Positions 5,948 to 25,238 of a stretch of DNA of 33,836 bases are shown here, one piece after another. Position numbers and translations under genes: made by a program. Every line of letters starts with the position of its first letter. The first letter of the stretch is position 1. Source of the stretch: Melioribacteraceae bacterium (lineage in GTDB: Bacteria; Bacteroidota; Ignavibacteria; Ignavibacteriales; Melioribacteraceae). Where the stretch lies: assembly GCA_036743235.1 (NCBI GenBank), contig DAINPX010000001.1, positions 1 to 33,836 on the forward strand, read 5' to 3'. The notes under the pieces are model-generated. The model was not told the DNA's origin and did not search any database. It saw only the letters and a program-made list of their open reading frames with translations.

Positions 5948-5972
5948 TTTTTCTCCTATTCATGTTTAAACT

Positions 5973-6009
5973 AAAAAAGCCTTTCTCGGTGTAACGAGAA
6001 AGGCTTTTT
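5973..6009 (-). terminator. Intrinsic terminator forming the attenuator of the trp operon leader
   Basis: Minus strand reads AAAAAGCCTTTCTCG-TTACAC-CGAGAAAGGCTTTTTT. This is a perfect 10-bp GC-containing core extended by A:U pairs, followed by a U6 tract. It lies 21 nt after the trpL stop and 25 nt before the trpE ATG. Confidence 0.85.
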
Positions 6010-6030
6010 AAATATAATTATTTCTCAAAA

Positions 6031-6123
6031 TCACCAAGACTTATTGCAGTACGTACCCCACCACCACCAAATGTTTTGGCTATTTGAAGTTAAAAGGCAA
6101 TATGTCTTGGTTATTTTTTTCAT
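6031..6123 (-). CDS. trpL: trp operon leader peptide, 30 aa: MKKITKTYCLLTSNSQNIWWWWGTYCNKSW
   Basis: Manual translation. There are four consecutive TGG codons at 6069..6058 and a fifth TGG as the last sense codon. It sits directly between a promoter-like element and the terminator upstream of trpE. It is too short for the ORF track. Confidence 0.8.
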   Translation of the reverse strand: MKKITKTYCLLTSNSQNIWWWWGTYCNKSW

Positions 6124-6129
6124 GGGTGC

Positions 6130-6158
6130 AAAATAACAATCATTTTAATCTTTGTCAA
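6130..6158 (-). promoter_or_regulatory. Sigma-70-like promoter candidate for the trp leader
   Basis: Minus strand reads TTGACA (6158..6153), a 17-nt spacer, then TATTTT (6135..6130). The -10 element ends 6 nt before the trpL ATG. Confidence 0.4.
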
Positions 6159-6199
6159 TAGCTTGCATAAATTTTCATAAAAATACATTTATTTTCATT

Positions 6200-9100: not shown

Positions 9101-9871
9101 TAACTTTTCGCAATGTTCAATAATTGTATCGGTAACTACTCCGCTTTCAACTTCAATAACGGGAATAATATTTTCATTTTCCTCAACATGTTCTATTTCA
9201 TGTATTTTAGTAAACTTTTCGGTATTTATTACCATTGTTCTTCTGTTAACGGGCACGGCTCCGCCGGTTAACCCGGTACCGCCGCCTCTGGGAATTATAG
9301 AAAGATTTAATTTTTTAGCTACTTTAATTAATACCGGTATCTCCTCAATAGAATTGGGATATACAACAACAAACGGATACTCTACTCGCCAATCTGTTGC
9401 ATCGGTAGCATGGCTTACAAGATGAAAAGAGGAAAAATGTACATTTTTTAATGATACTAAACCGGTTAACATTAAAAGTAATTTTTGTCGTAATAATTTT
9501 ACAGTGTAAAACTCCTTAAAAAATCTTTCATTTAAATCTTCAACCTTTTTTATAACTTTTAAGGCAGTTTCATCCCCTTTGCTATTCCGTCTTACTGTTT
9601 CTATTCTTGAATTATGTATTATTTTTAACTTATTTCTTTTATGTTTATTTTTAAGAAATTCCTCATATAGGTAAGGGTTTCGTTCTATAATAAATATATC
9701 GCCAACATTTTCGTATAATAGTTTTGCACTTCTTCCTGTTATTCTTCTATTTCTTAATAGTTCAACTTGTTGCCAAGTCTCTTTATCAAAATATTTTAAT
9801 ATAATTTCTTTATCCGAAAACGAAGTATAATTATAAGTAATTTCTCTAAATCTAAATTCTTTACTTTGCAT
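6200..9871 (-). CDS. Large fused oxidoreductase: N-terminal DUF3683-like region, FAD-linked oxidase (GlcD-like), 2x[4Fe-4S] ferredoxin motifs and two CCG cysteine-rich domains (GlcF/HdrD-like)
   Basis: 1223 aa. PRGGGTGLTGGAVP marks the FAD_binding_4 domain and SGEHGIGLTK the FAD-oxidase C-terminal part. Cluster motifs are CVRCGKCKTVC..P and CTVCHKCQVPCP. CCG-type motifs are FPGCGSE...CCGYP and EPCHSP...CCGEAG. The overall architecture resembles E. coli YdiJ. An AGGAGA Shine-Dalgarno sequence is present, 25 nt after the asd stop. Confidence 0.8.
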   Translation of the reverse strand: MQSKEFRFREITYNYTSFSDKEIILKYFDKETWQQVELLRNRRITGRSAKLLYENVGDIFIIERNPYLYEEFLKNKHKRNKLKIIHNSRIETVRRNSKGDETALKVIKKVEDLNERFFKEFYTVKLLRQKLLLMLTGLVSLKNVHFSSFHLVSHATDATDWRVEYPFVVVYPNSIEEIPVLIKVAKKLNLSIIPRGGGTGLTGGAVPVNRRTMVINTEKFTKIHEIEHVEENENIIPVIEVESGVVTDTIIEHCEKLGYIFATDPTSAWASTIGGNIAENAGGKKCVMWGTAIDNLYSFKIVNSTGDILKVKRRNHPYRKILPEDNVIFDVYKLNGKGDLLTKTIELSGTEIRKKGLGKDITNKALKGLPGLQKEGGDGVIVSAKFVLYTPFKYCKTICIEFFGSNMVAASNAIIKINDLFSEDNKVYLTALEHFDEKYVDAINYRNKSNRNENPKAVLLIDLESNYTDELEQGCNKIISVANSFNAEGTLAINDSERKIFWNDRKHLGAIAKHTNAFKLNEDIVIPLRNLPHFADYIEQLNYCKEYENSITTINKINDYLIELNKSERDNIPHKRVEGIIVELENKKQIYNKLLHEINTNNNILADIQSGKIIIEYDKEITSYYKKVFHGYDEIIKDIEKIEIAERTRKIIIATHMHAGDGNVHVNIPVHSNDYLMMNEADEAASLSMKKAVELGGVVSGEHGIGLTKLKFIDQEILDEYQAYKKINDPDDLFNPGKLNKNFPLYLIYTPSFNLLEREAIILEYTDLEKLSSQISSCVRCGKCKTVCNTHYPKGEMFYNPRNKILAVGSITEAVLFAAQTLDMKSFEYFKNLREISDNCTVCHKCQVPCPVKIDFGDISITIRKQLEFRKKTKAKIFTAIALFYLGRKKYFINKIFRLGLLKIGYNSQRIISYINKPISYYTGLIIPKLNHLLRSPFPKSGEKTIREIFNLKNTDMFYCFENPKITTGKSVVYFPGCGSERMIPEISLAVITLLYNAGIKVVIPPEYLCCGYPFMANGKIETAELKSYENRVIFHKMAYTAGYLNIEAVIVSCGTCYEMLDKYELENIFNNAKLIDVNEYIAQEQLYTKKSNGNKLYYHEPCHSPLKHKGCDKTFSNIYGIKPDVIPNCCGEAGTLALSRPDIANILRDRKVENFNNQNYEKQIEVLTTCPSCVMGLNKLDSNIKVNGKSLVIYNAEQFLGKDWKKNFIKTVKKEGIEKILF

Positions 9872-9896: not shown

Positions 9897-10937
9897 TTAT
9901 ATCATTCTTTTTTTATACATTATTTCTGCAATTAATATGGTACCCCCGGCAGCTCCTCTTATTGTATTATGCGATAATACAACATATTTATAGTCAAATA
10001 AATTACACTCCCTTAATCTTCCTGTAATAGCAGCCATCCCTTTATCTATACTTTTATGTAAACGTGGTTGAGGATATTTTTCGTTGTCAAAATATTTTAT
10101 TGGTGTTACCGGTGCAAAAGGTAAATTCATTTCTTGCGGTAAAGATTTATATTCTTCCCAAGTTTTTAATATTTCCTCTTTTGTCGGTTTATTAATAAAA
10201 CTAAGCTGAACAATTTCCGTGTGGCCGTCTTTTACAAACACTCTATTTGTAGAAGCACTAATTTTAATATCTGCATTAATAATTTTATCCTCATCCATTC
10301 TCCCCAATATTTTAAGAGGTTCACTTTCCAATTTATCTTCCTCACCCCCAATAAAAGGAATAATATTATCTATCATATCTAAACTCGGCACTCCCGGATA
10401 TCCCGCACCGCTTATTGCCTGTAATGTAACAACATTTATTGACTTAACTCCAAATTTGTTATGTAATGGGGCAATTGATAATATTAACCCTATAGTTGAA
10501 CAATTAGGATTTGTAACAATAGCTCCGTTATTATATTTCTGATACTTTATTAAATTTAAGTGCTCATGGTTAACTTCCGGAATAATTAACGGAACAGCAT
10601 AACTCCATCTGTGGTTTTTTGCATTTGATATTATTATATGTCCTTTATTTGCCAAGTTTTCTTCAATCTCTCCCGCAACCGAAGCATCTAATGCCGAAAA
10701 CAATAATTTGGAATTAAATTTATCATCGCATAATTTAATAACTTTATCGGCAATTTTTTTAGGCATCTCAGCATCTTCAATCCAGTTAACAACGTCCTTA
10801 TATTTTTTCCCTGCAGATTTATCTGATGCCGCAATTTCTTCTACTTCAAAATACGGATGATTATTTAATAGTGTTATAAATTTTTGTCCTACACTTCCTG
10901 TAGCTCCTAAAACCCCTACTTTTATTTTTTTATCCAT
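9897..10937 (-). CDS. asd: Aspartate-semialdehyde dehydrogenase
   Basis: 346 aa. Motifs are VGVLGATGSVGQ, the active-site NPNCST, and QAISGAGY. Confidence 0.92.
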   Translation of the reverse strand: MDKKIKVGVLGATGSVGQKFITLLNNHPYFEVEEIAASDKSAGKKYKDVVNWIEDAEMPKKIADKVIKLCDDKFNSKLLFSALDASVAGEIEENLANKGHIIISNAKNHRWSYAVPLIIPEVNHEHLNLIKYQKYNNGAIVTNPNCSTIGLILSIAPLHNKFGVKSINVVTLQAISGAGYPGVPSLDMIDNIIPFIGGEEDKLESEPLKILGRMDEDKIINADIKISASTNRVFVKDGHTEIVQLSFINKPTKEEILKTWEEYKSLPQEMNLPFAPVTPIKYFDNEKYPQPRLHKSIDKGMAAITGRLRECNLFDYKYVVLSHNTIRGAAGGTILIAEIMYKKRMI

Positions 10938-10943
10938 ATTTAC

Positions 10944-12251
10944 CTACTCGTTAATACTTAATAAATATTCTTTTAAATCTTCATAATTGCTTGATAAAAC
11001 ACTACTCTTTTTTTCTCTATCTATACACTTTGTCAATCTATCGGGTTTTTCTATTTTTTTATTTAATGCGTTTTCTATTATCTCGTAAAATTTTGCCGGA
11101 TGCGCAGTTTCTAAAATAATAAATTGCGTATTCTTACTGAATTTATCCTGCATTTTTTTTGTTGCTGCATAGCCCACTGCACCATGAGGGTCAATTATAT
11201 ATCCATATTTTGTATAAACTTCTTTTATACCGTTTAATATTTCATCATCGTTAATTTTATTGGATACAACATCATCCATAATTTTTTTGTGTTCATTATT
11301 ATATAAATCAATTATACGGGCTAAATTACTCGGGTTACCAACATCCATTGCGTTTGCATAAGTTTTTACGGATTTTTCCGATTTAAATACACTTGTTTTT
11401 AAATATTTATTAAATACATCATTAATATTTAATGCAGCAATAAATTTATTTACAGGCAATCCCATTTTTTTTGTAATAAGCCCAGCCGTTAAATTCCCTA
11501 AATTCCCGCTTGGAACGGTAAAAACAATATTTTCGGCACTTTCGCTACAATTAAAATAAGCGTCATAATAATAGATCATTTGAGGCAATAACCTTGCTAT
11601 ATTTATTGAATTAGCAGATGAAAGTCTAATATTGTTTTTTAAAAATTTATCATTAAAAGCCGTTTTAACAAGTCTTTGACAATCGTCAAATGTTCCTTCT
11701 ATTTCCAATGCTTTAACGTTACCACCTAAAGTAGTTATTTGTTTTTCTTGCAAAAAACTAATTTTATTTTTAGGATACAAAACAACAACTTCAATTCCAT
11801 TTTTATTATAAAATCCGTTTGCAACCGCACTACCCGTATCTCCCGAAGTTGCAACAAGTATTATTAACTTTCTTTTTTCATTCTTATTAAAATACTCGGT
11901 AACTGCAGCCGTAAATTGTGCCCCAAAATCTTTAAATGCCAAGGTGGGTCCGTTAAACAATTCCAACACCATTGTATTATTATCAAGTAATACCAACGGG
12001 GAATTAAATGTAAAAATATTATCAACAATGTCTATAAAATCATTTTCAGGTATCTCATCTTCAATGTATTTTTTTAATATCGGAAATGCTGTATTTTTAA
12101 ACGAATGATTTTTATTTTTACTAAAGTATTCATTTTCCATTTTGGGAATTATTAACGGCATATATAAACCACCGTCTGCGGCTAATCCTTCTAATACTGC
12201 GGTTTTAAAAGATACAATATTGTTTTTGTTGTTTGTACTATAATATTTCAT
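10944..12251 (-). CDS. thrC: Threonine synthase
   Basis: 435 aa. It has the PLP-lysine motif PTLAFKDFG, then ATSGDTGSA and TAHPAKF. Confidence 0.92.
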   Translation of the reverse strand: MKYYSTNNKNNIVSFKTAVLEGLAADGGLYMPLIIPKMENEYFSKNKNHSFKNTAFPILKKYIEDEIPENDFIDIVDNIFTFNSPLVLLDNNTMVLELFNGPTLAFKDFGAQFTAAVTEYFNKNEKRKLIILVATSGDTGSAVANGFYNKNGIEVVVLYPKNKISFLQEKQITTLGGNVKALEIEGTFDDCQRLVKTAFNDKFLKNNIRLSSANSINIARLLPQMIYYYDAYFNCSESAENIVFTVPSGNLGNLTAGLITKKMGLPVNKFIAALNINDVFNKYLKTSVFKSEKSVKTYANAMDVGNPSNLARIIDLYNNEHKKIMDDVVSNKINDDEILNGIKEVYTKYGYIIDPHGAVGYAATKKMQDKFSKNTQFIILETAHPAKFYEIIENALNKKIEKPDRLTKCIDREKKSSVLSSNYEDLKEYLLSINE

Positions 12252-12252
12252 T

Positions 12253-13191
12253 TTATTTTCTATTTATTAATAATGCCCCTTGCTTATTAACTTTTGTTAC
12301 AAAAATAGAATAAGCATATTTTTGTGTCTTCATAAACTCTTTTATGTTTGTGCTTATTTGTCCGGCAATTTCGCTAGAACCTGCAAAGGCAAAAATGGAG
12401 GGACCACTTCCTGAAATATTACATGCCAAAGCACCCGATTTATAAGCGATATTTTTTATTTCTGCGTAATTAGGAATTAAAAACGCCCTGGCAGGTTCAA
12501 CAATATAATCTTCAACAGCTCTTCCTATTAAATTCAAATCATTCATAAACAAACCTGCAGTTAATGCTGCACTATTTCCCCAATGCTTTATTGCATCTTT
12601 TAAAGGTACGCATTCAGGTAATACTCTTCTGGCTTCTTTTGTGCTTATTTCTATATCGGTATATATTATTACGCAGTATAAATTTTCTGGAGTGGGTAAT
12701 TTTATTATATCAAGCGGAGAATAACTCCTTATTAAAATAAATCCCCCGAATAATGCAGGAGCCACATTATCGGCATGTAATCCTCCGCTTGCTATTTTTT
12801 CGCCTTGTAATGCATATTCCAACAATTTATTTTCGGAAAGATTGAGATCGAACAAATAATTACCCGCTACCGCAGAAGCAACAGCACAAGCCGCGCTACT
12901 GCCTAAACCGCTGCTAATTGGCATATATTTGTTAATTTCCAATTCCACACCACAAGAAATATTATTTTCCAACATCATTGTAATTAACGGAGCTCCAACG
13001 GTATTAAGCCTAATATCTTTTGGCAATTTACCTTTATCGCCGGATATTGATTTAATTATCAAATCATTCCCCTCGGTTTTACGTAACGTAATTTCATCTC
13101 CTAATTTTTCAATTGCAAAACCAAACGTGTCAAATCCGCAACCAACATTACTTACCGAAGCCGGTACAAATACTTTAACTTCATTATACAT
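12253..13191 (-). CDS. thrB: Homoserine kinase
   Basis: 312 aa. It has the GHMP kinase motif PISSGLGSSAA and an N-terminal PASVSNVGCGFD. Confidence 0.92.
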   Translation of the reverse strand: MYNEVKVFVPASVSNVGCGFDTFGFAIEKLGDEITLRKTEGNDLIIKSISGDKGKLPKDIRLNTVGAPLITMMLENNISCGVELEINKYMPISSGLGSSAACAVASAVAGNYLFDLNLSENKLLEYALQGEKIASGGLHADNVAPALFGGFILIRSYSPLDIIKLPTPENLYCVIIYTDIEISTKEARRVLPECVPLKDAIKHWGNSAALTAGLFMNDLNLIGRAVEDYIVEPARAFLIPNYAEIKNIAYKSGALACNISGSGPSIFAFAGSSEIAGQISTNIKEFMKTQKYAYSIFVTKVNKQGALLINRK

Positions 13192-13200
13192 AATATTTTT

Positions 13201-15648
13201 TTATATTTTATCAATTATTTTAATTAAATCGGCAAATACCGCCGCAGCCGTAACCTCTAATCCCGCACCGGGACCTTGAATTATTAATGGATTATTATTA
13301 TAATATTTACTTTTAATAACTACCATATTATCGGTTAAACATAAATTATAAAACGGACTATTAGGTCCAATAGACTTAATTCCTATTTTTGCTTTTCCGT
13401 TTTTATATTCCGCAATATATTTTAATCTTTCATTTTTGCTTTCGGACTGTAACCGCTTATTTTCATATTCTTTATCTACTTCAGATAAGTTGTTATAAAA
13501 ATCATCCAAAGTGCAATCAAAAAGTAATTCATTATCAATTATCTTTTCTTGTTCAATCGCATTAGGTTCTATGACAATTCCCAATTCGCGTATTAGAATA
13601 ATTATTTTTCGTAAAACATCAAATCCCGATAAATCGTCTCGTGGGTCCGGTTCGCTAAATCCTTTTTTGCTTGCTTTTTTTATTGCTTTAGATAACGGTA
13701 CATCCTTAGAAATAATATTAAAAATATACCCCAGCGTACCCGATAATACTGCCTCAATTTCTTCTATTTCATCTCCTGCGTTTTTCAAATCGTTTAGCGA
13801 AGTTAATATCGGTAATCCGGCTCCAACGGTTGCTTCGTAATTAAAAAAAGTTTTGTTTTTTTGTAATTCCAAAAGTTTTTGATAATAATTGTAATCTATT
13901 GAATTTGCCGTTTTATTGGCAGTAACAATACTCACTTTGTTTTTAAGCAAATTCAAGTATTCTTTTGCAAGTTCCTTTCCTGATGTACAATCAACAAAAA
14001 TTTTATTTTTTAATTTAGAGTTAATAATTTGTTCAACAAATTTATTATCGGTATAATTTTTTGCTATAAAATTAAAATTACTTCCTAAGTCCTTATCGTT
14101 TATCCCCTCAATACTCCAAATCATTTTTTTACTGTTTGAAACCCCTATTAAATTAAGTCTTATATTTTTTTGCTTTAACAAATATTCTTTTCTATTTATA
14201 AGTATTTCTATAAATTTATTACCTATCTTTCCAATTCCTGCCACAAACAAATATACATCTTTTACACCGTTAAAAAAGAATTTTTTGTGTATTAAATTTA
14301 GTGCATTCTTTAAATCCGTTTTATTTATGACCATTGAAATGTTTAACTCGCTACTTCCTTGGGCAATAGCAACAATATTAATTTTTTCGTCTCCTAAGGC
14401 TAAAAATAAATTTCCGGCAATTCCGGCAGTGCTTCTCATATTTTCGCCAACTACCGCTACAATTGATAATTCACTCTCTATCTTAATATCGTTAACTAAA
14501 CCATCTTTTAATTCGTAATAGAATTCATTTCTAATTACTTCTTGTGCTTTTTCGGCAAATTTGGGTAATACTGCAAAACAAATAGAATGTTCAGAGGATG
14601 CTTGAGTAATTAATATTATATTAATTCCTTCGTTTGCCAATACTCCAAACAACCTTTTGGCAATACCTGCTACACCTACCATTCCCGGACCTTGAACACT
14701 AATTAAAGCTACTTCGTCTATTGAAGAAATTCCTTTTATTGCATATTTGTCTTTTGTAGAACTACTTTGAACTAATGTACCAATAAAATTAGGATTAAAA
14801 GTGTTTTTTATTCTAATCGGAATATTTTTAACCATTGCCGGATACATAGTTGGCGGATGAATTACTTTTGCACCGAAGTGGGATAGTTCCATTGCTTCTT
14901 CGTAAGATAAAAATGAAACAGGAAAAGCATCTTTTACTTTTCGCGGATCTGCCGTTAATACACCGTCAACATCCGTCCATATTTCAATTTCTTCAACATT
15001 TAGTGCTGCTCCTATTATTGATGCCGTATAATCCGATCCTCCCCGCCCTAATGTTGTTGTTTCGTTTAAATTATTTGAAGCAATAAACCCTGTAATTATT
15101 TCAACTTTATTACTTTTTTCAAAATAATTTTTAATTAGTTTTTCCGAAATTTCTAAATTAACTTTTGCCGAACCAAATAGTGAATCGGTTTTAATAATTT
15201 CTCTTGCATCGCAATAATTGGCATTAATTCCTAATGTAATAAAATATTCCGATATTGCATAATTAGAAATTCTTTCTCCATAACTCAACAAATTATCCAT
15301 AGTTTTAGGAGAAATTTCTTTTATAAGATATATACCATGCAGCAAATCTTTTATTTCATTTAAAAATATTTCTACCTGATATTGTATTTTTTTTGTATTC
15401 TTTTTAATTAGCTTTGTTACAATTTCTTTGGTTTTTTCTACTAAAATATTAAAATTGGTTTTATAGCTAATATCTCCTTTAGATGCCGTTAATCCTATTT
15501 CTATTAATAAATCCGTTACGCCTTGAAAAGCCGAAAAAACAACGGCTATTTTTTCGTTATTTTTTAATTTGTTTTTTATTATGCTTCCTACATCTGCAAT
15601 TCTATCGGCACTACCTACAGAAGAACCTCCAAATTTTAAAACTTTCAT
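13201..15648 (-). CDS. thrA: Bifunctional aspartokinase / homoserine dehydrogenase (paralogue II, thr-linked)
   Basis: 815 aa. It has KFGGSSV and TTTLGRGGSDYTA...WTDVDGVLTADPR (kinase domain), a central ACT region, and a C-terminal HSDH domain (GIGKIGN, LSGTLGYIF). GAGGAG Shine-Dalgarno sequence. It is followed directly by thrB and thrC. Confidence 0.92.
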   Translation of the reverse strand: MKVLKFGGSSVGSADRIADVGSIIKNKLKNNEKIAVVFSAFQGVTDLLIEIGLTASKGDISYKTNFNILVEKTKEIVTKLIKKNTKKIQYQVEIFLNEIKDLLHGIYLIKEISPKTMDNLLSYGERISNYAISEYFITLGINANYCDAREIIKTDSLFGSAKVNLEISEKLIKNYFEKSNKVEIITGFIASNNLNETTTLGRGGSDYTASIIGAALNVEEIEIWTDVDGVLTADPRKVKDAFPVSFLSYEEAMELSHFGAKVIHPPTMYPAMVKNIPIRIKNTFNPNFIGTLVQSSSTKDKYAIKGISSIDEVALISVQGPGMVGVAGIAKRLFGVLANEGINIILITQASSEHSICFAVLPKFAEKAQEVIRNEFYYELKDGLVNDIKIESELSIVAVVGENMRSTAGIAGNLFLALGDEKINIVAIAQGSSELNISMVINKTDLKNALNLIHKKFFFNGVKDVYLFVAGIGKIGNKFIEILINRKEYLLKQKNIRLNLIGVSNSKKMIWSIEGINDKDLGSNFNFIAKNYTDNKFVEQIINSKLKNKIFVDCTSGKELAKEYLNLLKNKVSIVTANKTANSIDYNYYQKLLELQKNKTFFNYEATVGAGLPILTSLNDLKNAGDEIEEIEAVLSGTLGYIFNIISKDVPLSKAIKKASKKGFSEPDPRDDLSGFDVLRKIIILIRELGIVIEPNAIEQEKIIDNELLFDCTLDDFYNNLSEVDKEYENKRLQSESKNERLKYIAEYKNGKAKIGIKSIGPNSPFYNLCLTDNMVVIKSKYYNNNPLIIQGPGAGLEVTAAAVFADLIKIIDKI

Positions 15649-15673
15649 AACTCCTCATCTACTTGTTTAAAAT

Positions 15674-15707
15674 AAAAAAACCGACCTAGTTAGACTAAAG
15701 TCGGTTT
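15674..15707 (-). terminator. Intrinsic terminator upstream of thrA (attenuator 3:4 helix)
   Basis: Minus strand reads AAACCGAC-(14-nt loop)-GTCGGTTT, followed by TTTTATTTT. It ends 25 nt before the thrA ATG. Confidence 0.6.
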
Positions 15708-15729
15708 AAAAGAATAGTATTCACCAACT

Positions 15730-15789
15730 TCAGTCTGTTAGACTGCCGGTAGTTATAACGGATGTTAGTGAAATACACGAGGATAACAT
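15730..15789 (-). CDS. Candidate thr leader peptide, 19 aa: MLSSCISLTSVITTGSLTD
   Basis: Manual translation. The Ile-Thr-Thr codons (ATA ACT ACC) end 4 nt upstream of region 1. The TGA stop lies inside region 2. There is no obvious Shine-Dalgarno sequence, and trpL lacks one too. Confidence 0.4.
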   Translation of the reverse strand: MLSSCISLTSVITTGSLTD

Positions 15790-15853
15790 ATGGACAAACC
15801 TTATAATTTATAATTATGCAAATAATTAAATAACTTTTCAAATTTACAGTGTA

Positions 15854-15882
15854 TATATAAGACATATTTTTGTATAAAGCAA
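15854..15882 (-). promoter_or_regulatory. Sigma-70-like promoter candidate for the thr leader
   Basis: Minus strand reads TTGCTT (15882..15877), a 17-nt spacer, then TATATA (15859..15854). It lies 26 nt after the stop of the upstream AK-HSDH gene. Confidence 0.35.
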
Positions 15883-15907
15883 GCATAAAAATGCAAAAAA
15901 CCCGAAA

Positions 15908-18361
15908 TTAATAGAAAAAATTTGCAATTTTAATTATATCTGCCAAAATACCTCCGGATGTAATTTTAAAACCTGCTCCGGGTCCTTTTAATAACACGGG
16001 TGTTTCATTATAATAAACTGTAGTAAACGATATGCTATTCTCGTTATTTCTTAGCTCGTAAAATGGATGATTTTTATCAACCTGCTTTAGTCTTACACTT
16101 GCTTTATTTCCTTTATATTCGGCAATATATCGCAATACCATATTGTTACTTGCAGCTATTTTTCTCTTTTCTTCAAATAAAGAATTATATTCTTTTAAAT
16201 ACTCAAAAAACTCTTCGCCTTTATTTTCTTGTAAGTCGTCAATCAATTTTTCAATTTGTATTTCTTCAAAATTAATATTAAATCCGGCTTCTCTTATTAA
16301 GACCAGCAATTTTGTTGCAATGTCACTTCCGTCTAAATCTACCATCGGATTTTTTTCGGTATAACCCAATTCACATGCTTCTTTTACAGCATCAGAGAAA
16401 GATTTACTCTCATTTATTGAGTTAAATACATAACTTAAAGTACCGCTTAGTACTGCCTCAATTTCAATTATCTTATCTCCGCTTAAAATTAAATCTTGTA
16501 AAGTATTTACAAACGGTAAGCCGGCTCCTACATTAGTTTCAAAAACTAACTTTGCGTTATATTTTTTTGCAGCATTTTTAAGTTCATTATATATTTTATT
16601 TTTAACTGTACAGGCTTTTTTATTTTGGGTAATTATTGAAACGGATTTTTTTAACAGACCTAAATAATAATTTACTACTAACTCACAACCGGTACAATCA
16701 ACAAAAACCGAATTGGGCAAATTTCCCTTAATAATTGTTTGTATAAATTCATCGGTATTGCTTAACTTCCCTTCATATAATAATTCTTCTTCCCATGCTT
16801 TAACATTAATTCCGCTTTCTTTTATTAGCATTTTTCTTGTATTGGCAACCCCCACAACTCTAATTTCCAAATTCAAATTATTAAATAAATAATTTAACTG
16901 ATTATTTAATTGGGCAAAAAGAGTTTTACCCAACTCTCCAGTTCCTAATACAAACACATTTATTACTTTTAGATGTGATAAAAAAAACGAATCGTGAATT
17001 GCATTTAATGCTTTTCCTATATCACTTTTTGAAATTACCAAAGAGATATTAAGACGGGAAGACCCTTGAGCCGCAGCTTCTATTTTAATTCCGTTTCTTC
17101 CCAAAGCCTGATATATTTTTTCCGGTACACCCGGTAAATTTCTTATATTCTCGCCAACAACCGCAATTACTGCAACATCTTTATCTGTTACAATTCCGTT
17201 TATTAATCCGTCATTTATTTCATGTTTTAGTTCTTCTGTTATTAATTTTTCTGCTCTTTGTGCATTTTCTTCATAAATGCTAAAACAAATTGAATGACCG
17301 GATGAAGCTTGAGATATTAATATAATACTAATGTTATTGTAGGCAAGCAAATTAAATATTCTACCGGCTAATGTGGCAACATCTATTAAGCCTGTTCCTT
17401 TTACATTAATAAGGGCTACATTTTCAATTGTTGAAATACCGGTAACGGCATAGTCGTTTGTTATTGTTTCATTTGTAATTACTGTACCTTTAAATACCGG
17501 ATTGAATGTATTTTTAATAATTATGGGTATCCCCTTTATTAAAGCCGGACGTATTGTTGGTGGGTAAATTACCTTTGCTCCAAAATGGCTCATTTCCAAT
17601 GCTTCTTCATAAGACATTTTTTCAATAGGCAAAGCTCTTTTTACTTTTCGGGGGTCTGCGGTTAATACTCCGTCAACATCAGTCCATATTTGAATCTCTT
17701 TAACATCTAATGCAGCTCCTAAAATGGATGCGGTATAATCGCTACCGCCTCGCCCCAATGTTGTGGTTTCACCTTCTATAGTACTACCTATAAACCCCGT
17801 TACTACTTTTATTATTTGCTTACTTTTCAAGTAATCATTTATTATTTTATCCGTCTTACTAAATAATACCCTTGCATTCCCAAAATTATTGTCTGTTTTT
17901 ATCAGTTTCCTGCTATCAACATATTCGGCTTTAAGTCCGGCACTATTTAAAGCTGCTGTTATTATTGTGCACGATAGTCTTTCTCCAAAACTCATAATAT
18001 GGTCTTTGCTGCGTGGGGATAGTTCCTTAATTAACCAAATGCCGTATAAAAGTTTTTCTAATTCATCTAATAGTAAGTTTACTTTTCTTCTAACCAAGTA
18101 CAAACTTTCGCCGGTAGTTAATTTTTCTATTACGGTTAGATGAATGTTTTTTATATACGAAAATCCGTTTTTATATTCATTCTTTCCTAAAGCCGCGTTT
18201 TCACCCGTGCTTATTAGTATATTGGTAATTGTTTGAAATGCGGAAAATACTAAAATTAAACTTCTGTTTTCATTATCTTCTTTAATTATATCAATTACTT
18301 TTTTAATGGTCTCGGGACTGCCAACCGATGAACCGCCAAATTTATATACAACAGTTTCCAC
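15908..18361 (-). CDS. Bifunctional aspartokinase / homoserine dehydrogenase (paralogue I, met-linked, metL-like)
   Basis: 817 aa, with the same domain order as thrA (YKFGGSSV, TTTLGRGGSDYTA, WTDVDGVLTADPR, ACT region, HSDH LSGTLSYVF). The start is GTG at 18361, preceded by AAGGGA. It begins 13 nt after the stop of the PLP enzyme gene. Confidence 0.9.
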   Translation of the reverse strand: METVVYKFGGSSVGSPETIKKVIDIIKEDNENRSLILVFSAFQTITNILISTGENAALGKNEYKNGFSYIKNIHLTVIEKLTTGESLYLVRRKVNLLLDELEKLLYGIWLIKELSPRSKDHIMSFGERLSCTIITAALNSAGLKAEYVDSRKLIKTDNNFGNARVLFSKTDKIINDYLKSKQIIKVVTGFIGSTIEGETTTLGRGGSDYTASILGAALDVKEIQIWTDVDGVLTADPRKVKRALPIEKMSYEEALEMSHFGAKVIYPPTIRPALIKGIPIIIKNTFNPVFKGTVITNETITNDYAVTGISTIENVALINVKGTGLIDVATLAGRIFNLLAYNNISIILISQASSGHSICFSIYEENAQRAEKLITEELKHEINDGLINGIVTDKDVAVIAVVGENIRNLPGVPEKIYQALGRNGIKIEAAAQGSSRLNISLVISKSDIGKALNAIHDSFFLSHLKVINVFVLGTGELGKTLFAQLNNQLNYLFNNLNLEIRVVGVANTRKMLIKESGINVKAWEEELLYEGKLSNTDEFIQTIIKGNLPNSVFVDCTGCELVVNYYLGLLKKSVSIITQNKKACTVKNKIYNELKNAAKKYNAKLVFETNVGAGLPFVNTLQDLILSGDKIIEIEAVLSGTLSYVFNSINESKSFSDAVKEACELGYTEKNPMVDLDGSDIATKLLVLIREAGFNINFEEIQIEKLIDDLQENKGEEFFEYLKEYNSLFEEKRKIAASNNMVLRYIAEYKGNKASVRLKQVDKNHPFYELRNNENSISFTTVYYNETPVLLKGPGAGFKITSGGILADIIKIANFFY

Positions 18362-18374
18362 TTAATATTCCCTT

Positions 18375-19529
18375 TTATTTTAAACTTATACTTTTTTCTA
18401 TAGCTTGTTTTATATCATTAATTAAGTCTTCGGCATCTTCAAGCCCTACAGAAAGTCTTACCAAACTATCCGTAATTCCCCCTGCCAATCTTTTTTCTCG
18501 GGGTATGGATTTATGGGTCATGCTTGCGGGATGACTTACCAAACTTTTTGCTCCTCCCAAACTTTCTGCAAGTTTAAATAATTTTGTAGAAGTTACAAAT
18601 TTAGTTGCTACTTCTTCTGTATCTTCTTCAAAAGAAATTGAAATCATACTACCCGGTTGTTTTTGTTGTTTTTTTACAATCTCATAATTTTTATGTGCCG
18701 GTAATCCCGGATAGTAAACATTTTTAATACCGGGTTGTTTACTCAAAAATTCGGCTATCTTTTTAGCATTTTCCACATGCTTTTCGACTCTTATTTTTAA
18801 GGTTTCCAAACTTCTTATTAATAACCAACTATCAAATGGTGATAGAACGGCACCGGTAGCATTTTGAACGTATTTTAATTTCTCACCAATTTCGATATCT
18901 TTTGCAACAACCAACCCTGATAAAACATCGGTATGTCCGCCAATATATTTAGTTGCACTATGAATAACTATATCAGCCCCAAGTTTTAACGGATTTTGAA
19001 AAATCGGAGATGCGAAAGTATTATCTACACATAACAATAAATTGTGTTCTTTTGCTATTTTGGCAATTTCTTCAATATCCGATATTTTTAACAATGGATT
19101 AGTCGGGCTTTCTAACCAAATTAATTTTGTTTTTTCGTTTATCGCTTTTTTAACATTATTAACATCGGTTGTATCAACAAAATTTATAGTAATTCCGAAA
19201 TTATTATATATTGTAGTAAACAATCTAAACGCCCCGCCGTAAATATCGTCAACTGCTAAAACTTCATCACCTGTTTTTAATAACTTTACTACCGAATCAA
19301 TTGCAGAAAGCCCGCTTGCAAAAGCTAATCCAACTGTTCCTCCTTCTAATTGTGCAATAATGGTTTCCAATATTTTTCTTGTAGGGTTATTTGTTCTTGT
19401 ATAATCAAACCCTTTATTTACTCCGGGTGATTCTTGTACATATGTAGAAGTTTGATAAATTGGTACTGCTAACGAACCGGTTAAAGGATCTACAGGTATT
19501 GCTTCCAATATTTGTGTTAATTCGTTCAT
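18375..19529 (-). CDS. Cys/Met-metabolism PLP-dependent enzyme (cystathionine gamma-synthase / beta-lyase family)
   Basis: 384 aa. It has the family hallmark ...HSATKYIGGHTD with the PLP lysine, plus YTRTNNPT and SLGGAKSL. AGGAGA Shine-Dalgarno sequence. The exact reaction (MetB, MetC or MetZ) cannot be decided from sequence alone. Confidence 0.85.
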   Translation of the reverse strand: MNELTQILEAIPVDPLTGSLAVPIYQTSTYVQESPGVNKGFDYTRTNNPTRKILETIIAQLEGGTVGLAFASGLSAIDSVVKLLKTGDEVLAVDDIYGGAFRLFTTIYNNFGITINFVDTTDVNNVKKAINEKTKLIWLESPTNPLLKISDIEEIAKIAKEHNLLLCVDNTFASPIFQNPLKLGADIVIHSATKYIGGHTDVLSGLVVAKDIEIGEKLKYVQNATGAVLSPFDSWLLIRSLETLKIRVEKHVENAKKIAEFLSKQPGIKNVYYPGLPAHKNYEIVKKQQKQPGSMISISFEEDTEEVATKFVTSTKLFKLAESLGGAKSLVSHPASMTHKSIPREKRLAGGITDSLVRLSVGLEDAEDLINDIKQAIEKSISLK

Positions 19530-21451: not shown

Positions 21452-21964
21452 CTATTCCCCACTTATCGGAATTAATACCATCGTTTCCAATTCACTCTTT
21501 TTAACTTTTTGTGGGTCATTTAAATAATACTCAATGGATTCGGGTTTTGGTTTTAAATTATTTTCTTTCATAAATTTTAACATTTTTTCGTAAGTTTTAC
21601 CTACTTTCATGTACGAACCTAAATGCATTCCCATAATAAACTTACCACCTTCAATTTTTCCGCATTTAATATTGCCTTCATTAACAACTTCTCGATCAAC
21701 AGGAAACCCGATAACAACATCCCATTTTTGGGTGAACATTTTTAAAAAAGCTATAACCTTATTTTGGGTGTTTAATTCTTCCCAGTTTAGTTTTTCATAT
21801 TTTACAAAAGGGGCTTTGGTTACAGGTATATTTTTCTTTTTCATAACCTCTAATATAGCTTCATACGAATTTTTTATTAGTTTTGGCATTTTTGGCATTG
21901 TAACTTGTGTTCTAATTTCTAATGTTAATTCCGTTTCTCTTGTAATTACTTCGATATTGCTCAT
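21452..21964 (-). CDS. GyrI-like small-molecule-binding domain protein
   Basis: About 170 aa with a duplicated beta-alpha-beta-beta pattern (effector-binding domain family) and a C-terminal EYYLNDP...ETMVLIPI. The start is moved to ATG 21964, which has a GGAGAA Shine-Dalgarno sequence 6 nt upstream. The ORF-track start at 21976 is TTG. Confidence 0.6.
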   Translation of the reverse strand: MSNIEVITRETELTLEIRTQVTMPKMPKLIKNSYEAILEVMKKKNIPVTKAPFVKYEKLNWEELNTQNKVIAFLKMFTQKWDVVIGFPVDREVVNEGNIKCGKIEGGKFIMGMHLGSYMKVGKTYEKMLKFMKENNLKPKPESIEYYLNDPQKVKKSELETMVLIPISGE

Positions 21965-22136
21965 TAGTTTCTCCAATATTTATAAAATACTTTAGACGAA
22001 ATTAACAAAAATTTGTTTATAAATTTTCGCTTTTTTGGTTTTCTTTAAAAAATATTAAAAAATACTTGAATACTAATTATTTGTTCGTTAATTTATTTAA
22101 CATAATATAATAATTTATTTTCTATACGAGTTGATT

Positions 22137-24011
22137 ATGGACGCAAATGTTGTTAAAGAATTTTTAAAGAAAATTGTTCTATTTAAAGACTTAAGTGATA
22201 TTGAACTTGAGCTTATTACTAATTTAATTGAAATTAAAACCTTTGAAAAGGATGCGTTTTTATTTTACGAAAACAATCCTCGCAAAAATTTGTTTGTTAT
22301 TTACGAAGGTGAAGTTGAGTTATTTAAACGTACCCCTTTTGGTGAAGAAAAACGCTTGGCATTTTTTAGCCGATACGATTTTATTGGTGAAGGAGCATTA
22401 TTAGATGACTCGCCACATAGCACTAATGCACGTGCTTTATTAGAATCTACTATTTTTGTTTTAACTCGCGAAAAATTCCAAAGTTTAATTGATGATTACG
22501 GTTCTATTGCTGTTAAAATTTATAATCATGTTGCACGTGTAATTTCGCGTAGAATGAGACAAACCAATGCACGTGTTATAAATATTGCAGCCCAATACGA
22601 AAGCGGACGAACAAGAATTGAACATGACTTATTAGGCGATAGAGAAGTGCCTTACGAATATTATTACGGTGTTCAAACTTTGCGTGCTTTAGAAAATTTT
22701 AGCATTAGCAGTGTTGCCCTTTCTGCTTATCCTACTTTAATTGAAGGTCTTGCTATTGTTAAAATGGCTGCAGCAAAAGCCAATTTCGATTTGGGATTAC
22801 TTTCTAAACCGGTTGCGGACGCCATTGTGCAAGCATGTAATGAGATTTTAAACGGTAAACTTCATCCACATTTTGTTGTAGATATGATTCAAGGCGGTGC
22901 AGGTACTTCTACAAACATGAATGCAAACGAAGTGATTGCAAACCGTGCATTAGAAATTTTAGGCTACGAGAAAGGCGAATACAAATATTGCCATCCTAAT
23001 AATCACGTTAATTTATCTCAGTCAACTAACGATGCTTACCCTACAGCCGTTAAAATTGCATTAATTAAATCTAACAAAACTTTGGTTGCCGTACTTAAGT
23101 TATTGGTAGATTCTTTTAGAAAAAAAGGGAAAGAGTTTGCACATATTTTAAAAATGGGAAGAACCCAATTGCAAGATGCTGTTCCAATGACTTTAGGTCA
23201 GGAATTTGAAGCCTATGCATCAACCTTAAGCGAGGAAATTAGCAGACTTGAAGATAACGTTAAACTTTTCTTGGAAGTAAATATGGGTGCAACTGCTATT
23301 GGCACAGGCATTAACAGCGACCCCGGTTATAGTGCTAAAGTTGTTAAACACTTACAAGAAATTACGGGCTTTAATATTGTGTTGGCTCCTAATTTAGTTG
23401 AAGCCACACAAGATACCGGTGCTTTTATTATGTATTCATCAGCCGTAAAAAGATTAGCTGTTAAATTAAGTAAAATATCTAACGATTTAAGATTGCTTTC
23501 AAGTGGTCCCCGTGCCGGTTTGGGTGAAATCAATCTACCTAAGATGCAACCCGGTTCTTCAATTATGCCGGGCAAGGTAAATCCTGTAATACCCGAAGTT
23601 GTAAATCAAATTGCTTTTAAGGTTATTGGCAACGATCTTACGGTTACACTGGCTGCAGAAGCCGGTCAATTGGAACTTAACGTAATGGAGCCGGTAATTG
23701 TTCAAAGTCTATTTGAATCTATCGAAATGTTAAAAAACGGGATGACTACTTTAATGTATCGTTGTATAGACGGAATTACTGCAAACGAACAAAAATGTAG
23801 GGATTATATATTAAACAGTATCGGTATTGTAACTGCTTTAAATCCAGTTTTGGGTTACGAAACATGTTCTGCATTAGCCAAAGAATCTTTAGAAACTAAC
23901 CGTGGTGTATATGAATTAGTATTGGAACAAAAACTTTTATCAAAAGAAGTTTTGGACGAGTTACTTGCTCCCGAAAACATGATTGCACCGCAAAAGATGA
24001 CCAAAGAATAA
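22137..24011 (+). CDS. aspA: Aspartate ammonia-lyase with an N-terminal cyclic-nucleotide-binding-like (CAP_ED) domain
   Basis: The C-terminal ~465 aa begin RIEHDLLGDREVPYEYYYGVQTLRALENF and carry the signature GSSIMPGKVNPVIPE. The N-terminal ~155 aa (LFKDLSD...FYENNP...FVIYEGEVELF...FIGEGALLDDSPHSTNARA) form a cNMP-binding beta-roll fold. The start is ATG 22137; the track's TTG start is at 22131. Confidence 0.88.
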   Translation: MDANVVKEFLKKIVLFKDLSDIELELITNLIEIKTFEKDAFLFYENNPRKNLFVIYEGEVELFKRTPFGEEKRLAFFSRYDFIGEGALLDDSPHSTNARALLESTIFVLTREKFQSLIDDYGSIAVKIYNHVARVISRRMRQTNARVINIAAQYESGRTRIEHDLLGDREVPYEYYYGVQTLRALENFSISSVALSAYPTLIEGLAIVKMAAAKANFDLGLLSKPVADAIVQACNEILNGKLHPHFVVDMIQGGAGTSTNMNANEVIANRALEILGYEKGEYKYCHPNNHVNLSQSTNDAYPTAVKIALIKSNKTLVAVLKLLVDSFRKKGKEFAHILKMGRTQLQDAVPMTLGQEFEAYASTLSEEISRLEDNVKLFLEVNMGATAIGTGINSDPGYSAKVVKHLQEITGFNIVLAPNLVEATQDTGAFIMYSSAVKRLAVKLSKISNDLRLLSSGPRAGLGEINLPKMQPGSSIMPGKVNPVIPEVVNQIAFKVIGNDLTVTLAAEAGQLELNVMEPVIVQSLFESIEMLKNGMTTLMYRCIDGITANEQKCRDYILNSIGIVTALNPVLGYETCSALAKESLETNRGVYELVLEQKLLSKEVLDELLAPENMIAPQKMTKE

Positions 24012-24022
24012 AAATTAATTGT

Positions 24023-24054
24023 ATCGAGATGGGTTTTTACTCATCTCGATTTAT
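24023..24054 (+). terminator. Intrinsic terminator after aspA
   Basis: ATCGAGATG-GGTTTTTACT-CATCTCGAT forms a 9-bp stem and is followed by TTTAT. Confidence 0.7.
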
Positions 24055-24535
24055 AACAAAAATTCTCTTAAGTTTTACAGTTGAAAACCGTAAGTTATTG
24101 TAATAGAATAACTTAATTTTTAACATTGCGGAAATTTACACCACTTTTGTCTGTTGTGTATTAATTAGCGGCAAATACTTGGCGGAAAACGGCTAAGTTA
24201 GATAATTCTAAATAGTAATTAAAAACAATTAATACTATTAATAAAAACTAATTGGTTTTAGAATTAAGGCTTAAAGCAACAGATTTGCACAAACAAAAAA
24301 ATAATTTATTAAATTCAAGTATATCGCTTCTTAATTCCGGCAATTAATAATATTAGGACAAGTAACATAATTTTATTATTTATGGATGTGCGTTAATGTT
24401 TCTGTAATAAAACTTGCAGGTTTATTTTGCATCTATTGGTAGCATTGTTTAAATAACAACTTTTTCCATATAAAATGCCAATTTTTGGAATACAACTACA
24501 TAAATTATGCTAAATTTATCGAGTTACGTAAATTG

Positions 24536-25171
24536 TTAATCTATTTTATAAATATAATTCGGTAATTTTACTATTTTGCCGTTATAACCGCCCGTAAAAT
24601 CCGTTTCCTGGTCACCAATATTGGCAATAATATTATAACCGTTTGCAGTCATCTGCTTACGCATTGCGTATTTAAACTCAGCCATGTTTGGGAAGGAATC
24701 TACCGGTTTTCTACAAATTAAAGTATCAAATTTTGTATAACCTTGAGCAATTAAATTTTTATAAGTCGCTTCATAATTTTTTGTACTTCTGCCGGTAATA
24801 AAAATCACTTTAACTCCTTGCTCAATTAGTACTTTATACAACTCTTTAACCGGAACTATCGCCTTCGCTTCTCCCCTATCTTGCCAATCCGACCATAGGT
24901 TGTGTTCGTACCCAAAATCAATCGATTTAATGTAATTGTAGTTAGAAAGAGCGGTTTCGTCCACATCAAAAACAACCGCATCGTAAAGTTTATTATTATA
25001 ATTTTTCAAATAATCTTTAACATCCTTTAAAACAGCGTTTAACTCGTTATAATATTTGTCCGTTTCGTAATAATCTATCACTTTGTTTTTTGCTTCGGTT
25101 AAATTAATAATTTTTGACGAACTGCAACCGATAAACGACAATAAACCGAATAATAAAATGTATTTTTTCAT
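24536..25171 (-). CDS. Lipoprotein acid phosphatase, HAD superfamily (class B/C, e(P4)/plant-type)
   Basis: It has the lipobox signal MKKYILLFGLLSFIGC, the DxDET nucleophile motif VVFDVDETALSN, then FITGR and GDQETDF. The start is set to ATG 25171 because the longer ORF-track start overlaps the hslU terminator. Confidence 0.8.
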   Translation of the reverse strand: MKKYILLFGLLSFIGCSSSKIINLTEAKNKVIDYYETDKYYNELNAVLKDVKDYLKNYNNKLYDAVVFDVDETALSNYNYIKSIDFGYEHNLWSDWQDRGEAKAIVPVKELYKVLIEQGVKVIFITGRSTKNYEATYKNLIAQGYTKFDTLICRKPVDSFPNMAEFKYAMRKQMTANGYNIIANIGDQETDFTGGYNGKIVKLPNYIYKID

Positions 25172-25192
25172 TCTTTCGTTACCAATGTTAAT

Positions 25193-25238
25193 AAAAAAGC
25201 CTCGTTTCATTTACAAATGTAAAATAATACAACGAGGC
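25193..25238 (-). terminator. Intrinsic terminator after hslU
   Basis: Minus strand reads GCCTCGTT-(loop containing the TTTACATTTGTAAA sub-hairpin)-AACGAGGC, followed by TTTTTT. Confidence 0.6.

Follow-up and report, generated by a model that had tools for sequence, protein, structure and literature searches.

Aspartase (aspartate ammonia-lyase) is a textbook enzyme that is also used industrially, and its control is usually considered to be mainly transcriptional, with a modest activation by substrate and Mg2+. Solved aspartases (1JSW; the Bacillus YM55-1 enzyme, 1J3U/3R6V; 6WNG) are built without an N-terminal sensor domain. Unlike these enzymes, a gene found in a 33,836-nucleotide stretch of DNA from a Melioribacteraceae bacterium (GCA_036743235.1, contig DAINPX010000001.1, positions 1 to 33,836; hereafter the window) encodes a fusion protein, in which residues 160-624 resemble the solved aspartases in fold and motifs and are preceded by a sensor of the cyclic-nucleotide-binding (CNB) fold. 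The gene is complete and lies at 22137..24011 on the plus strand, where it comprises 624 codons and a TAA stop, a length that equals that of its closest homologues.

Fusions of the MtPatA and Bd1971 type, as in the protein described here, have an N-terminal CNB domain covalently joined to a catalytic domain. MtPatA (Rv0998) is a mycobacterial protein acetyltransferase whose N-terminal CNB domain places the fused enzyme under direct cAMP control (PMC4964394). Its ligand is cAMP, its output domain is of the GNAT type and its crystal structure is that of a monomer, whereas the aspartase fusion has a non-canonical phosphate-binding cassette and a lyase part that is predicted to be tetrameric. Bd1971 is a cNMP-EAL phosphodiesterase of Bdellovibrio, the N-terminal sensor of which dimerises through a CRP-like C-helix, and its linker helix passes the ligand-driven swing of the roll to the C-terminal EAL enzyme (PMC6717892). 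By analogy, Bd1971 is the closest mechanistic model for the fusion, although it binds both cAMP and cGMP, has a different output domain and forms a sensor dimer that is only predicted for the aspartase. Furthermore, the beta-roll and the long C-helix are common to the fusion sensor, E. coli CRP/CAP and the actinobacterial CRP/GlxR. CRP has Arg82 and a DNA-binding domain, whereas the fusion has His94, a loop Arg (Arg49) and a C-helix that leads into an enzyme.

A published description of an aspartase with a CNB domain was not found in the literature on aspartase (or aspartate ammonia-lyase) and cyclic nucleotide binding, a classification of CNB domains into 30 families holds no lyase fusion (PMC2246266), and PDB sequence and Foldseek searches returned no entry that combines the two folds. 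A preliminary description of this DNA had stated that gating by a cNMP-type domain is not a standard aspartase feature, and the same literature agrees with it, as it yields no such regulation. In public databases the fusion proteins are simply named 'aspartate ammonia-lyase'. The enzyme and the sensor fold are each known, their combination is undescribed, and the ligand pocket shows a distinctive and apparently compensatory change. We consider it probable that the N-terminal domain is a ligand-sensing regulatory module.

Sensor, C-helix and aspartase body

The sensor spans residues 1-145 (22137..22571, plus strand) and consists of N-terminal helices, an eight-stranded beta-roll, a hinge and the C-helix. 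The Pfam family cNMP_binding (PF00027) matches residues 34-120 with an E value of 6.7e-19 and 68.1 bits against a cut-off of 27.5, and phmmer aligns the domain to solved CNB domains with E values from 1e-23 to 1e-12. A separate AlphaFold2 (AF2) model of residues 1-158, which reaches a predicted local distance difference test score (pLDDT) of 86.4 and a predicted template modelling score (pTM) of 0.79, shows the beta-roll followed by a single long helix at residues 122-155. The best PDB neighbours of this model in Foldseek are GlxR, M. tuberculosis CRP and T. thermophilus CAP, with query-normalised template modelling scores (TMq) of 0.72-0.81, and the Foldseek matches of the sensor have a probability of 1.00 and TMq values up to 0.83, with the long C-helix included in the alignment. 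Because the nearest folds are the cAMP-binding GlxR, CRP and CAP, the sensor is of the CRP type and not of the PKA type. Thus, the cNMP-binding (CAP effector) pattern that had been recognised in the N-terminal extension is borne out by the Pfam score, phmmer and Foldseek alike. About 158 residues precede the first lyase strand of the fusion, and searches with Pfam and NCBIfam identified no HTH_Crp-type DNA-binding domain in the protein; Lyase_1 follows the C-helix instead.

The long C-helix extends from residue 122 to about residue 154 (22500..22598, plus strand); it contains Arg138-Arg139 and Thr143-Asn144 in a BLASTP alignment with CRP and coincides with helix 122-155 of the model. It carries a 3-4 heptad of hydrophobic or small residues (V126, Y129, A133, I136, M140, T143, V147, I150 and Y154), and these positions are conserved in type and are in register with the dimer-interface helix of CRP. 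The helix passes into a highly conserved connector, A145-R-V-I-N-I-A-A-Q-Y-E-S-G-R-T159 (22569..22613, plus strand), which abuts the first beta-strand of the lyase and has the family consensus AAQYxSGRTR.

The aspartate ammonia-lyase body (residues 160-624; 22614..24008, plus strand) is composed of Lyase_1 (169-498, E 1.7e-99) and FumaraseC_C (564-616, E 7e-20), both above the Pfam gathering score. The NCBIfam aspA equivalog TIGR00839 matches residues 160-623 with 737.7 bits (cut-off 681.2), and the fumC models score lower than aspA and below their own cut-offs (fumC_II, 486.8 against 664.75). Among PDB sequences the closest match is the Elizabethkingia aspartase 6wng (E 1.7e-202), and E. coli AspA (1jsw) is matched with an E value of 1.5e-169; the Foldseek alignments give identities of 66% and 59%, respectively. 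The AF2 model of the full-length monomer has a mean pLDDT of 87.7 and a pTM of 0.73, and it superimposes on solved aspartases with Foldseek target-normalised scores (TMt) of 0.92-0.96 at 52-66% identity. The signature GSSIMPGKVNP, which marks the SS loop with the catalytic serine in the fumarase/aspartase superfamily, lies at residues 473-483 (23553..23585, plus strand). Together with TSTNMNANEV, SQSTNDAYPT and MGRTQLQDAVP, it differs by at most one substitution per motif from the crystallised aspartases 6wng and 1jsw. Judged from these scores, structural matches and motifs, the aspartase part looks active and catalytically competent, with no sign of a pseudo-enzyme.

The aspartase core with GSSIMPGKVNP, as originally read from the sequence, is therefore upheld by Pfam, TIGR00839 and the motif coordinates. 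The motifs quoted at that time are also in place, with RIEHDLLG at 22614-22637 (first given as about 22611), LFKDLS at 22179-22196, FYENNP at 22263-22280, YEGEVELF at 22302-22325, FIGEGALL at 22380-22403 and PHST at 22413-22424. The open frame spans 22131/22137..24011 on the plus strand without interruption; an alternative TTG start exists at 22131, but the lengths of the homologues favour the ATG at 22137.

Distribution of the fusion

The 120 closest database proteins all (120/120) have the same three Pfam domains, are 616-646 residues long and are 73-92% identical to the query. Their sources are Ignavibacteriales, Melioribacteraceae, Ignavibacterium album and metagenome-assembled genomes (MAGs) of Bacteroidota. 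To describe how widely the architecture has spread, one genome per GTDB species was scanned using the query sensor plus linker and a six-sequence alignment. Relatives of the sensor plus linker are encoded by 445 species representatives, and the best 80 of these 445 belong to Melioribacteraceae, Ignavibacteriaceae, Zixibacteria and some Bacteroidota (Marinifilum, Bacteroidales). Ignavibacterium album, Melioribacter roseus and Tenuifilum osseticum are carriers available in culture. A sensor-lyase open reading frame was found at 75 of the 80 loci fetched, and 61 of these 75 frames encode 610-629 residues. The window itself is 96-97% identical to two of the loci (L001 and L002), which derive from MAGs labelled Melioribacteraceae or 'Bacteroidetes'.

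Shorter forms also occur in the databases, which hold 'partial' CNB plus Lyase_1 proteins and 'stand-alone' aspartases of 477-486 residues from the same clades. At one locus (L081, 4001-5865), on a metagenome contig of 1.1 Mb, apparent frameshifts divide the fusion into pieces of 353, 117 and 143 residues, and breakage of this kind may explain many of the 'partial' proteins. Several of the 477-486-residue aspartases start exactly at an internal Met that matches Met140. In Tenuifilum osseticum (L082, 2557-4434; GCA_041102575.1) the annotated protein has 477 residues, and in Bacteroidetes bacterium GWE2_42_24 (L083, 2503-4455) it has 484; in both cases the frame stays open further upstream and contains an entire CNB domain that has a Met of its own. 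Since starts called at the internal Met hide the CNB domain, public annotation under-reports the fusion, and the practical consequence is that the sensor domain is concealed in those records in which the gene has been cut at this point.

A different architecture was considered for one JGI sequence from a 2.4-kb contig (P0127), in which the CNB domain and the aspartase N-terminus run to about residue 245 and are followed by a dissimilar histidine-kinase ATPase tail. As a CNB-aspartase with a histidine-kinase ATPase it was rejected, for the contig, by reading of its sequence, is probably chimeric.

The ligand pocket

The equivalent of the phosphate-binding cassette is G84-E-G-A-L-L-D-D-S-P-H94-S-T-N-A-R-A100 (22386..22436, plus strand), in which the Gly-Glu pair is retained and His94 (codon 22416-22418) stands in place of the canonical Arg. 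In the phmmer alignments to solved CNB domains 'ddsPHSt' faces 'ydePRSa' of PKG without a gap and with equal loop length, and His94 is therefore placed at the position of the phosphate-binding Arg of PKA, PKG and CRP. The change from P-R-[ST]-A to P-H-S-T at 22413..22424, as first noted, is confirmed, and His is fixed in 121/121 close homologues. In the same set E45, R49, E85, P93, H94 and R139 are each present in 121/121 sequences and G84 in 117/121. Among 29 more diverse N-terminal domains, which share 23-86% identity, M1, F43, R49, G58, E85 and R139 are invariant, and E45, E61, G69, H94 and G157 are nearly so. At position 94 the divergent members have His and rarely Tyr, with one Arg and one Gln. 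Tyr at this position (TSYSTSAK) is seen in a sub-clade of divergent CNB-aspartase fragments (P0148, P0158 and P0210), in which the loop Arg is retained.

In CRP, cAMP's phosphoribose is held by Glu72, Leu73, Arg82, Ser83 and Val86, the adenine is contacted by Ser62, Thr127 and Ser128', and Arg123 and Glu72 are joined by a salt bridge (PMC11253593). A BLASTP alignment with the E. coli CRP sequence, which is 100% identical to PDB 1i5z, places CRP Glu72 at Glu85, Ser83 at Ser95, Arg122-Arg123 at Arg138-Arg139 and Thr127-Ser128 at Thr143-Asn144. A one-residue loop gap sets CRP Arg82 opposite the gap, beside His94, and CRP Ser62 counts to position 75, which is Ala in the window protein and Ser or Thr in 101/121 relatives. 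On this mapping, five or six key residues of the cAMP pocket of CRP are kept, and the phosphate Arg alone is changed. Since contact residues are retained, and since Arg49, Glu85 and Arg139 do not vary and His94 hardly varies in domains with as little as 23% identity, the pocket has been rebuilt and has not decayed, and in our reading it is under strong selection.

The counterpart of the missing Arg lies in the beta2-beta3 loop, E45-N-N-P-R49 (22269..22283, plus strand; family consensus E-N-x-P-R), where Arg49 occupies the position of Gly169 in PKA RIalpha, and where close homologues show no variation at Glu45 or Arg49. Canonical CNB domains have Gly at this loop position, and it is reported to co-evolve with the cassette Arg (Gly169 and Arg209 in PKA; Kannan et al. 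2007, PMC2246266). The two positions were paired in 414 CNB domains taken from the 150 nearest representatives in a library of 1.84 billion proteins, and the (loop, cassette) combinations were (Gly, Arg) in 200 domains, (Arg, His) in 30 and (Arg, Tyr) in three, with Arg at both positions in a single listed sequence (P0142). Every listed sequence with a loop Arg either reads on into 'R-x-E-H-D-L-L-G', the start of the aspartase, or is a fragment too short to reach it, and none of the multi-domain non-lyase CNB proteins listed has the loop Arg. When other bacterial multi-CNB proteins have a cassette His, their loop has Gly, Ala, Ser, Pro, Val or another residue that is not Arg. Proteins of this kind, of about 600-1080 residues (P0131, P0180, P0198, P0144, P0185 and others), carry a cassette His, as in GEMALLRGTDHTATAKA, without the loop Arg. 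His-type cassettes have thus recurred independently among uncharacterised families of CNB proteins.

The near mutual exclusion of the loop Arg and the cassette Arg suggests that the two side chains would occupy the same space, and for the same reason Arg49 may supply the positive charge that is given up at His94. The Gly-to-Arg and Arg-to-His exchange therefore looks compensatory and not degenerative. The preliminary description had concluded that the phosphate-binding Arg is missing; while the cassette Arg is indeed His94, it has not simply been lost, as its replacement is coupled to that of the loop Gly by Arg49. With Arg49 coupled in this way and the CRP contacts matched, a loss of nucleotide binding cannot be deduced from His94 alone. 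A related natural case is the PKA regulatory subunit of trypanosomatids, in which polar residues stand in for the cassette Arg and the specificity has moved from cAMP to nucleosides, a shift that depends on an added Glu which clashes with the phosphate (PMC10959531). The fusion adds a positive Arg49 instead, and because this compensating change brings in positive charge, an anionic ligand is argued for over a neutral nucleoside.

Proposed mechanism and alternative explanations

We propose that a ligand-controlled, CRP-like dimeric sensor gates the aspartase, with a purine nucleotide-like molecule as the best guess for the ligand, and we regard the chances of this reading as a whole as even. 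In the aspartase tetramer, two sensor domains would pair via long amphipathic C-helices in the manner of CRP and Bd1971. The roll would take up a small ligand, for which a purine (cyclic) nucleotide or a nucleoside-like molecule is the leading candidate, and the anionic group of this ligand would rest on Arg49, His94 and Ser95. Binding would turn the roll relative to the C-helix, and the AAQYxSGRTR connector would relay this motion to the lyase N-domain at its first strand and thereby alter activity. A purine (cyclic) nucleotide-like ligand is favoured because the protein keeps CRP's contacts to ribose and base; this assignment is tentative and falls somewhat below even odds. It is possible, if a little less so, that the Arg49/His94 pocket senses a signal other than cAMP or cGMP, be it a nucleotide, a nucleoside, a dicarboxylate or heme.

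Several points weigh against the proposed gating by a nucleotide-like ligand. The ligand, the sensor dimer and the allosteric effect are predictions, and the reach of Arg49 to the cassette is an expectation drawn from aligned residues. In the full-length monomer model the linker at 141-154 has a pLDDT below 50, so that the sensor is not confidently placed relative to the lyase; low values would be expected here if the segment becomes ordered only in the oligomer. The lid position 143, which is Thr in the window protein, is mostly Ala in close relatives (A69/T37/S15). A conserved nucleotide cyclase neighbour was not found, the 80 fetched loci having one clear case (L082) and one weak case (L015). 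Finally, His or Met stands naturally at the Arg209 site of PDZ-GEF, which has a non-canonical cassette and an unclear ligand (PMC2246266).

The sensor might instead bind a non-nucleotide anionic metabolite, such as 2-oxoglutarate, fumarate, malate or aspartate, whose carboxylates would be clamped by Arg49, Arg139 and His94, and which would exert direct feedback or feed-forward control on the interconversion of aspartate and fumarate. A pocket with two invariant Arg residues and a near-invariant His would suit such a ligand, which also makes biological sense in an enzyme with dicarboxylates as its substrates. The nitrogen-responsive regulator NtcA binds 2-oxoglutarate. NtcA is listed as a CNB family, and CNB folds that bind heme (CooA) or chlorophenolacetate (CprK) are further precedents (PMC2246266). 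However, the canonical cassette Glu contacts the ribose 2'-OH, and Gly-Glu is missing from NtcA, FixK and further proteins with non-nucleotide ligands (PMC2246266), whereas in the fusion it is almost invariant and the base-contact positions of CRP are kept. On balance, a metabolite ligand is unlikely.

A further possibility is that the N-terminal domain has a structural role that needs no ligand, be it in dimerisation, in stabilising the tetramer, in autoinhibition or in the docking of proteins, and that the pocket has fallen into disuse. The canonical cassette Arg is gone, the long amphipathic C-helix could be a pure dimeriser, and the CNB homology domains of KCNH type and of PDZ-GEF also have non-canonical cassettes (PMC2246266). 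On the other hand, the pocket-lining residues are among the few invariant or nearly invariant positions across 23-86% identity while the surface varies freely, and the coupled Gly-to-Arg and Arg-to-His exchange has the appearance of compensation, not of degeneration, which makes a disused pocket improbable. The preliminary description had proposed either the sensing of a different small molecule or a dimerisation or autoinhibitory module; of these, pure dimerisation or autoinhibition is weakened by the invariance of the pocket down to 23-30% identity.

Alternatively, the domain could resemble CooA and sense gas or redox state through heme, with His94 as an axial ligand and Arg residues in contact with the propionates; the supply of fumarate would then be coupled to anoxia. 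The conserved heme-ligating His of CooA is structurally analogous to PKA Arg209 (PMC2246266), some members have Tyr, another possible heme ligand, at position 94, and the fold and sequence matches include DNR, a regulator that binds heme. Yet the nearest structures are cAMP-binding CRPs, the polar cassette of Glu85, Ser95 and Thr96 and the kept nucleotide contacts of CRP are unlike a hydrophobic heme pocket, a second conserved axial ligand is not seen, and the query sensor domain contains no Cys; a heme sensor is thus highly improbable.

That the fusion is two genes joined by an assembly, frameshift or gene-calling artefact, as the 'partial' and 'stand-alone' database entries might imply, is refuted for all practical purposes by the 120/120 best proteins, the 61/75 full-length frames and the 445 species, since the short forms inspected are themselves broken or mis-started fusions and the intact fusion recurs across independent assemblies.

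A sensor built into the enzyme, as indicated for the 445 species representatives, would be a direct post-translational switch at the aspartate-fumarate node. Both fumarate respiration and the release of nitrogen draw on this node in anaerobic heterotrophs such as Ignavibacteria, Melioribacteraceae, Zixibacteria and some Bacteroidota. If the proposed gating of the aspartase is true, a branch of the FCB (Fibrobacteres-Chlorobi-Bacteroidetes) superphylum gates the entry of aspartate into fumarate and the tricarboxylic acid cycle by means of an enzyme-borne sensor of a metabolite or second messenger. If, in addition, the signal is neither cAMP nor cGMP, the CNB fold would gain a new class of ligand, and the fusion would be the first aspartase gated allosterically by a sensor. 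The coupled exchange of loop and cassette is a natural experiment in rebuilding the CNB phosphate clamp, and it may reveal a new ligand specificity.

Genomic context of the fused gene

A hairpin at 24023..24050 (plus strand), 12 nucleotides past the stop codon, has a folding energy of -17.6 kcal/mol (z = -5.5), and none of 200 shuffled sequences was equally stable. It is a probable transcription terminator, and because this stable hairpin follows the stop codon, the fused aspA is probably the final gene of its transcript. The upstream neighbour is a divergent GyrI-like gene (21452-21976, minus strand), and the downstream neighbour is a convergent gene for a class B acid phosphatase (24536-25210, minus strand). 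The gap between the convergent aspA and acid phosphatase genes (24012-24535) is an unusually long, AT-rich and non-coding segment of 524 nucleotides, at the place of which the relative L002 has an additional gene of 374 residues. The window contains neither a tRNA nor an Rfam match.

Genes for aspartate-family biosynthesis (asd, thrC, thrB, two aspartokinase-homoserine dehydrogenases and a Cys/Met pyridoxal phosphate enzyme) form a cluster at 9897-19529 on the minus strand. The fused aspA had been described as adjoining this cluster; it is indeed nearby, at a distance of 2.6 kb, but it lies on the opposite strand and two unrelated genes stand between. The proximity is shared only with the closest relatives compared (L002) and is absent from the other 16 loci compared, and for this reason it is given no functional weight. 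Clustering of the neighbours at the 80 fetched loci identified no conserved operon partner of the fused aspA. In Ignavibacteriaceae the gene is flanked by leuS and serS, and elsewhere the flanking genes vary. At the Tenuifilum locus (L082), a minus-strand gene at 4996-6600, two genes downstream of the fused aspA, encodes a response-regulator, PAS and Guanylate_cyc (class III) protein, and a BLASTP search against the 80 fetched loci gave a single weak match to a cyclase domain (L015).

Two other features of the window deserve mention. The two aspartokinase-homoserine dehydrogenases are encoded in tandem on the minus strand (13201-15648 and 15908-18361) as bifunctional proteins of 815 and 817 residues with ACT domains in each, and they may be isozymes of the thrA/metL type that differ in their feedback regulation. 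A minus-strand gene at 6200-9871 encodes a 1223-residue fusion of DUF3683, FAD_binding_4/FAD-oxidase_C, a 4Fe-4S dicluster and a CCG cysteine-rich domain, which looks like a single-chain oxidoreductase of the glycolate or D-lactate oxidase type.

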